The position numbers and the translations under genes were made by a program. Under the pieces are notes generated by a model, which was not told the DNA's origin, made no database searches, and saw only the letters and a program-made list of their open reading frames with translations. A stretch of 64,000 bases of DNA, from positions 20,338,001 to 20,402,000 of the forward strand of contig OZ076409.1 of assembly GCA_964187785.1 (NCBI GenBank), written 5' to 3'. Within the stretch, counting starts at the first letter, position 1. Each line of letters starts with the position of its first letter. Source of the stretch: Amphiscolops sp. MND2022 (Eukaryota). Shown in pieces: positions 52,134 through 61,810 of this stretch.

Positions 52134-54179
52134 TGATGAAGAACAACTTTTTTCCTACCTGATGATGAAGATGAATCTGAACAAGAAATCTTTGCCCGAA
52201 AAGCACTCAGCAAGCGACGCGCCCTAGACGAACATGAGAGAGAATTATCAACAAAAGTAACCGAAGTCATCAAGATACCACTCAACTCCGCAGTCTACTC
52301 CTTCGGTGCAATCAAAGAAAATGCACGGATCAGAAACGAGCAAGATGCAGACCCTCTCCTCAAAGCACTGAAACAACGGATTTCACACGAAGAATATGAC
52401 AAACACCTTCTCAAAACCGAACCACGAGGACGAAACCTATTACGCCACGAAGAAAGAATCATAATGAAAGATGGAGTTCTGATGCGGAAATACTACGGAG
52501 AAGACGGATCAGTCACCCATAATCAAATCATAATTCCGAAACACCTAGTCCCAGAACTCTTGGCCACTCTACATGGAAAAACAAATAAACACCCAGGAAT
52601 CACAAAAATGATACAAGAATGCAGAGCGAAATACTACTTCCCGGGTCTTGCACGTAAAATCAGAGCTTGGGTAACCAGCTGTCAAGACTGCATTGCCAAT
52701 AAAAGAATTGACACAAGACAAATACGCCCAAAAATGCTAAGCAATACCGAGTTCACAATGGGACCAGAAGACTGCCTAGAAGTAGACATTCTACCAAACC
52801 TACCTTCCTCAAATGGATACCAACACATCATAACGATGATGGATGTTTTTTCACGTTACCTTTTCGCTTACCCGACACAGGACATGACAGCCAAAACAGT
52901 CGCACGATGCATAATAGACGTCATGACACGACACTGCTACCTGCCGACCGTCATTCTAACAGATAAAGGATCACAATTCAGGTCAGAAGTAGTCAATCAA
53001 ATAACACAAACACGGATAAGCCACGCATCGACGAAACACGCTCAAACAATTGGCATCCTAGAAAGGACTCATGCCTCTCTGAAAACCTCCCTAAAGATAT
53101 CAACGGGAGAACGACGCTCTATGTGGCATAAATATGTCCAGATCGCGGTCATGAACTACAATACGAGCTATCATGAAAGCCTAGGTTGTGAACCTACAAC
53201 AGTATTTCACGGACGCATTCCGTACAACATCCTAGACATAAAACTCGGATTGAAACCCGAATGGAAAAAAGATAGCAACGACGAACTAACGGATCAACTA
53301 CAGAAGCAAATATCCGAAATACACCATGCCGCCAAAGAAAACCTAATGCAGTCCTACTTAAAGTACAAACAGTACTAGGACAAGAAAGCAACAGCAACAC
53401 CACTCAAAGTCAACGACTACTGCTACGTCCTTAATCCGAAGGCAGACAACCAGTCAATGAAATTTGCCTTTAAAGATTGCATCTGGACTGGACCCTACAT
53501 AGTAGTCAAAGTACTCTCGAACAACAACTACGTCGTACGCCGCACGGGAACTAGGTATACTCAAACCCTCCACAGAATTCGCCTAAGGCTATATGCGCCC
53601 AATCAGCGAGTACCTGACGTAACAGTCAGAAGGGAAGATTATCTTCCAGACCCAGAGGTTAAAACAACCCACAATGATTGGAACGCGCAAGCTTGGGAAA
53701 CCGAATTCGGAGAAGTTCTGTTCGGAAACAATACCGAAAACGCCACAGAAGAAGCCACAGTTACAGAAATCACAGACACAACAGGACGCAACGAAACTAC
53801 AACGGAAAATGATGTGGTTAAAACAACCACCAACGGAAGTACAGTGGAAAATGACGTGGTTCAAACAACCACAGACGAAGCTACAACGGAAAGCGACGTG
53901 GCTCAAACAGCCACAAATGAAAATACTGCAGAAGATAAAGCACTCTCCGACAATATAACGTCATTTGACCTAGATGTCACCGATAACCCATATATTTTGA
54001 CCCCACCACCGATACACAGCCCTCCCAAAACACCCGAATTACCGCCTATAGTCGTTGGATACAATCCTAGAAAAGTGGGACGATACAATTTGAGACCTAA
54101 TCCGAGACCCAACGTGGATCCTGACTTCAGAATGCTAAACTCAACTACAGCGGACGATTTACGTCAAACTCAAAACTAA
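52134..54179 (+). pseudogene. Ty3/Gypsy pol C-terminus: integrase with GPY/F motif and a Thr/Glu-rich tail
   Basis: HHCC (LHGKTNKHPG...CQDC); D-D-E in LEVDIL, ILTDKGSQF, GILERTH; WTGPY; a single in-frame TAG at 53376 separates the two ORFs. Confidence 0.93.
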
Positions 54180-54325
54180 ATGAAAACAATCAACAGGCTA
54201 AACCGAACCGGAGTAGCTACGTAAAATTATCATCTAAACTAAAAAGAACAGCAACAAAGCCAAAATTATAGTTCCTTCAGAATCATCAAAACATAATAAA
54301 AGTCTACAAATCGTCACAACACAAA

Positions 54326-59643: not shown

Positions 59644-60782
59644 ACTAACCTAATTTTAAACTAATCTAAATTTTACTTACAGTACAGCTAAATCGGTTGC
59701 AGATAATTTCTCGAATACAAAACCTAAACGTAAACGTTACGGAACGTTTTTCAGAAATGATTTTTAACTAAAAACTTCCGGTTAACTATTCCCCGCGCGT
59801 GATAAGATTTTTCATTTCCGGTATGATCTTCTGATTTTCTGCCATACTAATCTAAACACTAAAATGAACATTTATAATTGGGATCATTCTTTCCACTGGT
59901 CCACACTAAAATGAAAACATTAAAATAAAATTCAATTCCGAGATCCCAACGGAATTCATACAATCTAAAATGAAAAGGAACAGACAAATAATAGAGCGGA
60001 ATTGTTTTCCAGAGATGAAGTGGTTGTCAATATTCACTTAAAGCACAGCCAAGTGATTTAGGCAAATATTTACAACGCTATGGCAACGTCAATCTACCGA
60101 GCTAATATTAGGAATTTTGCTTCTACGGACCAATAACGTCACTCTATTGATAGAACTATTCTTAGCTAAGTTGAATAGAAGCAATTTCGGTTGCCCCTAG
60201 CAACACCAATTGGAATAAGAGAGAGAGAATGAATTCACCTACGCACTCCGCTTTCTCTCCGCTTGGTCCGATAGCTAAGCTATGAGCAACCTTAATACGT
60301 ACGGGGCAGCTACGGAACGGATTGTAAAATTGTATTCCGCCGCTCAGCTATAACCAATCTTAATACGTACGGAACAATTCGTAAAATAATAGCGGTGAAG
60401 CATTAGTTTAAACCGAAATCAAATAAGGATTTTTCTGAATCGACGCACTTAAAGGGTTTTTGAAAACAAGTCTACATGTAAAAGATTGTACTGTAAGAAG
60501 GGGCTAAAACTATGATCGAAGAGTAACGATGCTATTACAATAGTTTCTCAAATCACGTATGCCTTACGTTACATTAAGAGTTTATGTATTCAGTGATTAG
60601 TTGTTTATCATTAAAATGTTTCACAGAACGTAACGTAAGGTCAACGTCAAAACCCAAACCAAGTGCTATTGTTGCAGGATGCCTGCCCTATTTATTCATA
60701 TACGAAGTCCAATCGAGTGCAGAATAATTATTGCCTGCAAATACATTTCTTTCCTATCTATTTGTACTTTGCAATTCGTACT

Positions 60783-61810
60783 TGTTACGTTATGGCCACG
60801 TATAGGTCAAAGTTGGATTTTCTGTTGGTGCAGTTGTTCAGTTTACAAAATTAACCGATTAATCATCATTATGTTTTTCTTAGCGTTGCTTGTTCCTCAA
60901 TAATATTCAAATATCCTTAGTCCAAAATTCCTTTTGCCTTGTTTCAATTTCGTTAATTTTTGCGAGTCATTCCTTTACTTCGAATCTCAATCTCCCAAAT
61001 TGAAAGTTGACTAATTGTTCATGCCGGCGTGCTTACGCTGATGAAAATGCAAGCTAGACTTTTATTTTACCGCAATTTTGAGATTTAAACAGGAAATGGG
61101 ATTGCCTGAACAAAAATGATTTCAACAAATTTACGGAACACTGACGCAACTAGGAATTTTGATGCCTGATTTTTACGACGCGGGACTGAAATGATATGAA
61201 TCATTAGCGCTTTTTGTTGAACAAACCTGATTTTTGCGATTCCTAGGAATTTTTAGGTGAGGAACAAATGACGCTAAGAAGGTATATATACTTAGACGAG
61301 ACATGTAAAGTTAGTTAGTTGTGTTTGCAAGTTGTAATAAACTTAAACTGTTTTCGTTGTTTCAACGTTGAACAAAATCATCTTCGAAGAATTCACCTAT
61401 TGCCGAAGAATCGTTTTTTTAACATTAAAAAATGACCACTAGAATCCAGAAGAGGAAAGCTGTAGCTGAATTAGTGTCAGGAGATTTCGAAGCTTCCTTA
61501 ACTGAAAATAACTCTGCTGAAAACCTGATACCTAGTTCTAGTAAAAATCCTAGACTTGAGCTTGAAAACCTGGAGGAAATAAAAACAACCCTGAGAAAAG
61601 AAATAATGACTGATCTAACAAAGATATTAGCCGAAAACCAAAAGGAAATGCTTAAATTAATAGCACCGGCGAACAAGAAACGCCCAGTTAGCTCGAACAT
61701 ACAAGATTCTGATTCTGACCAAGAAAACATCTCCGTAACGAGAACGTCCACTCCAGTCAAGACACAAACTGCGACTAGTTCTAAAACAACACCGGTTAAT
61801 AGTCGTAACA
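60783..61810 (+). repeat. Putative LTR (left boundary uncertain) containing the start of a gag-like ORF at 61432
   Basis: TGTTACG ... CGTAACA inverted ends; TATATATA (about 61283) and AATAAA (about 61335); no clean polypurine tract directly before 60783. Confidence 0.5.
61432..61810 (+). CDS. gag-like N-terminal coiled-coil ORF truncated at the LTR end (MTTRIQKRKAVAEL...TPVNSRN)
   Basis: Heptad-like LEEIKTTLRKEIMTDLTKILAENQKEMLKLI; the reading frame switches to unrelated integrase sequence exactly after CGTAACA. Confidence 0.5.

Follow-up and report, generated by a model that had tools for sequence, protein, structure and literature searches.

The window, the stretch of 64,000 nucleotides analysed here, holds the 3' two-thirds of a Ty3/Gypsy retrotransposon. 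An N gap lies directly to the left of the integrase, and the 5' half of the element is beyond it. The visible part begins with the 3' end of pol, encoding the Gypsy integrase and an acidic tail (52134..54179, + strand), with Pfam matches to Integrase_H2C2 (E 3.8e-14), rve (7e-11) and Integrase_p58_C (6.8e-5). The tail contains a 42-bp tandem repeat at 53789-53926. A single in-frame stop at 53376-53378 interrupts the frame before its end at 54179, so the window copy is broken. P0422, one of the full pol proteins and 97% identical to the window integrase, shows the order protease-RT-RNase H-integrase, of which the window itself contains only the integrase. Adding the missing lengths of pol and gag, we estimate the whole element at about 15-16 kb, which would make it a giant one. 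A related pol protein, P0397 (46%), carries a dUTPase domain (PF00692).

A gap of 146 bp (54180..54325) separates the stop of pol from the convergent stop of a spliced gene on the - strand. This gene is followed by a divergent intergenic stretch of 591 bp (58183..58773), an intronless 289-aa ORF on the + strand (58774..59643), a non-coding stretch of 1139 bp (59644..60782) and the LTR end. The preliminary description had proposed this order, and all its parts and coordinates were reproduced. The 3' LTR (60783..61810, +) ends with CA. Its right end is set at 61810, because the copies P0626 and P0627 of the LTR-encoded ORF diverge from the window directly afterwards. The left end is either 60783, whose TGTTACG mirrors CGTAACA at the terminus, or 60230, after a 13-nt purine tract (60217-60229). 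The first 126 codons of gag lie within the LTR, starting from 61432. The right flank ATTAT (61811..61815, +) is a candidate target-site duplication of which one side is visible. TA occupies positions 3-4 in all three insertion flanks (61811-61815, P0626 and P0627; n=3; deduced from the residues that follow the LTR end), hinting at a 5-bp target site of the form RYTAY rather than the 4-bp ATTA. An older, decayed Gypsy integrase at 61811-62900 is split by the LTR and still matches Integrase_H2C2 (E 3.4e-5) to the right of the junction; the LTR-encoded gag start continues into this relic as a single 187-aa ORF.

For the antisense gene, a GT-AG model with five T-rich predicted introns of 103-163 bp yields a protein of 1070 aa with no stop. 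Exons 1 (58182-58056, ATG at 58182), 2 (57944-57480) and 3 (57319-57188) are of low complexity, come from the splice model without homology support and are the part of which we are least sure; with 216 open splice combinations near the model sites, their junctions are a choice by site strength. Exon 4 (57080-56506) encodes a C2H2 zinc finger (C295-H321) and a helical stretch, exon 5 (56342-55722) a predicted RNase H-like core, and exon 6 (55618-54326) a helical region followed by a basic, low-complexity C-terminal tail. The divergent stretch contains five CCAAT motifs and one TGACGTCA at 58466, with no TATAA, and we infer that it is a two-way promoter. The sense ORF is rich in P, S, E and R and gave no Pfam match to env. 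A scan for bacterial promoters, which is not relevant to a eukaryotic sequence, found nothing.

The A/C bias of the plus strand seen in pol persists through the antisense gene, as had been claimed. AT skew is 0.34 in the integrase, 0.03-0.28 in the exons, 0.26-0.71 in the introns and 0.02 in host DNA; fourfold sites read on the + strand have A/C fractions of 0.38/0.26 in the antisense gene and 0.45/0.26 in the integrase. The bias spans the whole cargo and is missing from host DNA. The remark that no MITEs or SINEs were recognised in 52134-61810 likewise stood: blastn of this stretch against the window gave no match beyond the stretch itself and its tandem repeat, hence no copy of the window's host repeats inside it.

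Such short repeats lie at 46775-48762 and 51719-51829 and include a 150-190-bp unit present three times, two copies forming inverted arms 699 bp apart, and a MITE-like family with a 15-bp period. Further to the left, 15299-28886 is a decayed Polinton/Maverick-like element with a packaging ATPase (Pox_A32, E 4.9e-6) and about 2.3 kb of its polymerase region present twice (24438-26163 and 26713-28474). Its other ORFs, none with a Pfam match, are presumably integrase-like, capsid-like and DNA polymerase B-like. A 15-kb satellite at 29116-44157 repeats an 84-bp unit 179 times (88% matches). It is adjoined by an intronless, diverged ribosomal protein S5/S2-like ORF (44707-45246, -; Ribosomal_S5, E 7.7e-7), possibly a retrocopy. 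A broken non-LTR retroelement at 48986-51357 (+) has an ORF with a PHD finger (E 1.7e-7), then fragments of RT (RVT_1, E 3.9e-5) and, last, a cysteine/histidine tail, which a tail at 9659-10366 (-) resembles. No tRNA gene was found in the window.

Both cargo genes occur in many copies; single-copy genes had been named beforehand as the outcome that would speak against a cargo. Among 5075 candidates, 35 clusters match exon 6 with 36-98% identity, and the closest of them comprises 95 members. The 50% library contains 492 representatives that match exon 6 at E<=0.001. Exon 5 matches 69 clusters among 321 candidates. The clusters of the sense ORF (90-100% identity among the 15 members listed) and of the integrase tail have 47 and 74 members, with 6 of the 10 queried proteins found. 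All matches of exon 6, exon 5 and pol are unnamed ENA proteins.

That the cargo travels with the retroelement, as the preliminary description proposed, is borne out by shared contigs, read-through ORFs and a second locus. Contigs of cargo and pol clusters were paired by their listed bp sizes, with at most 15 members listed per cargo cluster. Among the members listed, 21,744 cargo-pol pairs yield 17 common contigs, where the rate in cargo-cargo and pol-pol pairs (3 in 19,408) would lead one to expect 3.4. The common contigs fall in subfamily pairs, with 4, 3 and 2 where fewer than 0.04 are expected among the members listed; five isolated overlaps, on contigs between 278 and 716 kb long, are misfits or possibly chance. 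For the window subfamily, the members listed include one further contig with exon 6, sense ORF and integrase tail and two contigs with two of the three. In four proteins (P0016, P0178, P0251 and P0290) exon 6 runs into the reverse strand of the integrase (E 2e-8 to 2e-6), which is expected of internally deleted copies in the convergent layout.

The second locus, L001, is the only one of 18 loci with 10 kb downstream. It contains an integrase (51%), a 455-bp gap, an antisense spliced gene, a divergent gap, a sense ORF, 1.3 kb of non-coding DNA, gag and the start of pol. Both cargo profiles match its antisense gene (E 3e-36, 3e-15 and 9e-29), its exon corresponding to window exon 4 is 32% identical, and the C2H2 motif is kept. 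The low-complexity sense ORF of 239 aa lies at the same position as that of the window, with marginal similarity (E 0.046). The start codon of gag is 388 bp upstream of the CA end of the LTR, and a PBS-like 13-mer and the full gag (DUF1759, 1.6e-7; Retrotrans_gag, 4.5e-4) follow. We take L001 to be either an element whose assembly runs through one LTR or a tandem. The module is thus multi-copy, travels with pol and keeps its layout in a distant lineage. Profile A1 of the cargo also gave 56, 29 and 32 pattern matches in metagenome, genome and viral contigs, respectively, none confirmed as a related locus.

The junctions after exons 4 and 5 are at the same places in L001, which has two extra introns within the region equal to window exon 6; P0016 and P0018 carry one of these as an in-frame insertion. 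From the sequences, such exact intron differences suggest that a spliced transcript once existed. A small L001 exon matching the start of window exon 6 (4350-4432, -) has an in-frame stop before its likely donor, and this copy may be broken. In the tree built from 27 exon-6 proteins, 15 form a clade (100/99) that goes with pol at least 90% identical to that of the window, and 9 form another (83/99) that goes with pol of about 66%. Pol at 94-96% identity is found with cargo 41-98% identical to that of the window, a mismatch that module exchange by template switching would explain. Within the clade of 15, contigs with pol at 94-96% also hold cargo of 41-87%, from which we infer that the cargo module has been exchanged between near-identical pol backbones. 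For P0552 with P0092 and the P0015 cluster, one contig combines an exon-5 protein of 82% identity to its window counterpart with an exon-6 protein of about 43%, from clusters of 24 and 21 members; this contig possibly carries a recombinant cargo gene.

Structure models suggest that the antisense gene is likely the descendant of a hAT transposase that lost its cutting residues. The predicted fold of exon 5 is three strands, helix, strand, helix, strand and long helix, as in an RNase H-like core. Hermes is the only structure to cover almost all of the exon-5 model together with residues 1-237 of exon 6, the two matches adjoining in order; the helical region of exon 6 maps weakly onto Hermes 343-566. 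Foldseek of the cargo models against PDB and BFVD gave no match at E<=0.001, a PDB sequence search with the cargo protein nothing meaningful, and ESM Atlas only scores of 0.75 for exon 6 and none for exon 5. No Pfam match above cut-off was obtained for the cargo exons, 45 representatives, 56 + 85 alignment members or the L001 exons, and zf-BED matched neither the window cargo nor the L001 exons. The DDE triad (Hermes D180, D248 and E572) is not kept. The inferred first column shows E in 40/56 and the second G in 52/56, with D in 2/56; these two positions read E and G in window exon 5, and the third has no conserved acid among the relatives. P0273, the deepest-branching exon-6 relative (26%), is the only one among those listed with E at the inferred third position and may be close to the transposase donor. 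Around the antisense gene we found no convincing TIRs with an 8-bp TSD, only one loose candidate with 2+2 mismatches. The longest exact inverted match, 12 bp at 54295/61066, lacks a TSD and its length is reached by 3/100 shuffles.

The non-coding DNA after the sense ORF is enriched in ACGT cores, with 12 against 4.2 expected in the window and 15 against 4.4 in L001 (0/200 shuffles each). In L001 the gap beside the integrase is enriched as well, and there are 11 ACGT pairs at 11 bp, 9 of which lie at the two cargo ends, all other spacings from 5 to 20 giving at most 2 each. When this spacing, defined in L001, is applied to the window, the 15 sites of 59644-61431 form 3 ACGT-N7-ACGT pairs (P 2e-4), at 60555 and 60633 in the non-coding stretch and at 60787 in the LTR; one further pair lies in the coding part and none in 38.9 kb of host DNA. 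Host bZIP/bHLH factors are presumably an alternative to the cargo protein at these cores. BED domains of Hermes bind subterminal repeats (PMC10368747), and for this reason the pairs may be relics of hAT subterminal repeats that now serve as putative sites of the cargo protein.

We propose that an ancestral Gypsy element received a hAT transposon in backward orientation, which then lost its ends. The antisense gene would be transcribed from the internal two-way promoter, and the sense ORF from the same gap. Splicing is strand-specific, so introns antisense to the packaged plus-strand RNA would stay in it and survive reverse transcription. Through its zinc finger and transposase scaffold, the protein would bind the ACGT pairs within the LTR and beside it. 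The bound protein could sustain transcription of the element or shield it from silencing, acting together with the small low-complexity sense protein. For the whole chain, in which a Gypsy lineage carries a two-gene module whose antisense gene is a domesticated dead hAT and predicted DNA-binding helper, we consider the balance about even. The fuller version is tentative and less probable, in which the lineage domesticated hAT as an intron-bearing dead factor that reads its old subterminal repeats (ACGT-N7-ACGT, now maintained by the LTR) in a self-encoded anti-silencing or activation circuit, the module being swapped like retroviral env.

The same structural evidence would serve a dead hAT-derived protein acting at integration, by tethering or nuclear import, or as a dominant negative against hATs. 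The basic tail and the nuclear import proposed for plant antisense ORFs (PMC7264820) fit such a role; however, the paired motif is conserved within the element itself and sits at both cargo ends in L001, and this copy sits in the older integrase relic (n=1); we regard it as unlikely. Rather unlikely is a true cargo whose protein came from another DDE transposase (Mutator, P) or a host RNase H fold and has another accessory role, as Hermes alone gives the adjoining matches to exons 5 and 6 and the predicted domain order finger-core-insertion fits hAT (PMC10368747). The convergent ends merely 146 bp apart, and the antisense RNA roles discussed in PMC7264820, would suit a module in which the antisense transcript itself interferes with pol as RNA, the coding frame being carried along. 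Long open frames and residues conserved at 22-45% identity across lineages instead argue for selection on the protein and make this very improbable. Just as little credit goes to an independent DNA transposon nested in, or preferring, Gypsy elements. The uneven pol and cargo identities and the 12-bp inverted match would agree with it, yet there are no convincing ends, the catalytic residues are absent, L001 keeps the same position and orientation, and fourfold sites carry the strand bias of the retroelement. The N gap just left of the integrase left room for host genes joined to it by chance or misassembly, which copy numbers, common contigs and read-through ORFs make scarcely credible and which L001, by repeating the order, refutes.

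Acoel genomes are rich in LTR elements (PMC9911081). In errantivirus-like Gypsy elements the sense ORF3 is an env fusion glycoprotein, whereas the sense ORF here is not env. Bdelloid LTR elements are likewise animal elements with a captured third ORF, which several TE types share; it is an env, GDSL esterase or DEDDy exonuclease, and no transposase is named in the available text (PMC5408684). Planarian Burro elements are likewise enlarged Gypsy elements with accessory coding capacity, but they exceed 30 kb and carry extra domains mostly in the sense polyprotein, whereas the present element, by estimate half that size, has a separate, spliced antisense gene (PMC6431247). Boty of Botrytis, a Gypsy element from outside plants, also has its antisense ORF at this place; for it, the available part of the citing paper (PMC7264820) mentions neither transposase origin nor introns. 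The accessory genes of DNA transposons in PMC12477816 are a different matter. Among the mostly openly accessible papers covered by our literature search, none was listed for an LTR element whose antisense gene is both spliced and derived from a transposase; an earlier description may exist in subscription papers, supplements or Repbase/Dfam.

With Hermes and other hAT transposases, the antisense protein may share the order zinc finger, linker, RNase H-like core and helical insertion, to judge by predicted domains and a weak colinear structural match, and the element shares repeated short sites near ends (PMC10368747, PMC2533014). It differs in the lost DDE, the missing TIRs, 8-bp TSD and Pfam hAT match, about 290 extra low-complexity residues in front and the location of the gene inside an LTR element. 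If the hAT reading is true, a class I element has domesticated a class II enzyme, one jumping gene serving as helper of another. Protein and ACGT pairs would then be a candidate protein-site pair for a self-encoded regulator. The antisense layout also indicates how a multi-intron gene can persist inside a reverse-transcribed genome. Annotation would wrongly count spliced genes of this kind, Pfam-free and present in dozens of copies in each subfamily, among the host genes.

A close parallel is with the plant Retand/Grande/RIRE2 Gypsy elements, which also have a conserved antisense ORF between pol and 3' LTR, with a proposed nuclear DNA-binding role, in a region of 2.9-6.6 kb against 6.0-6.6 kb here (PMC11963269, PMC7264820). 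For gene23 of Grande, an own internal promoter was demonstrated (PMC11963269, PMC7264820). The plant protein carries TRP28 (PF04195), which has no Pfam match in the window or L001 cargo. Introns are predicted here, whereas the word is absent from the available text of the Retand paper (PMC11963269), and, in contrast to the plant elements, the module here has a further sense gene, divergently oriented, whose position is conserved. According to the accessible parts of the plant papers, a nested TE was raised as a possible origin of the ORF and set aside, similarity to other TEs lacking, and the origin was called unknown (PMC7264820, PMC11963269). The protein described here likely shows that similarity; since it likely keeps a DNA transposase fold, the nested-TE origin becomes testable.
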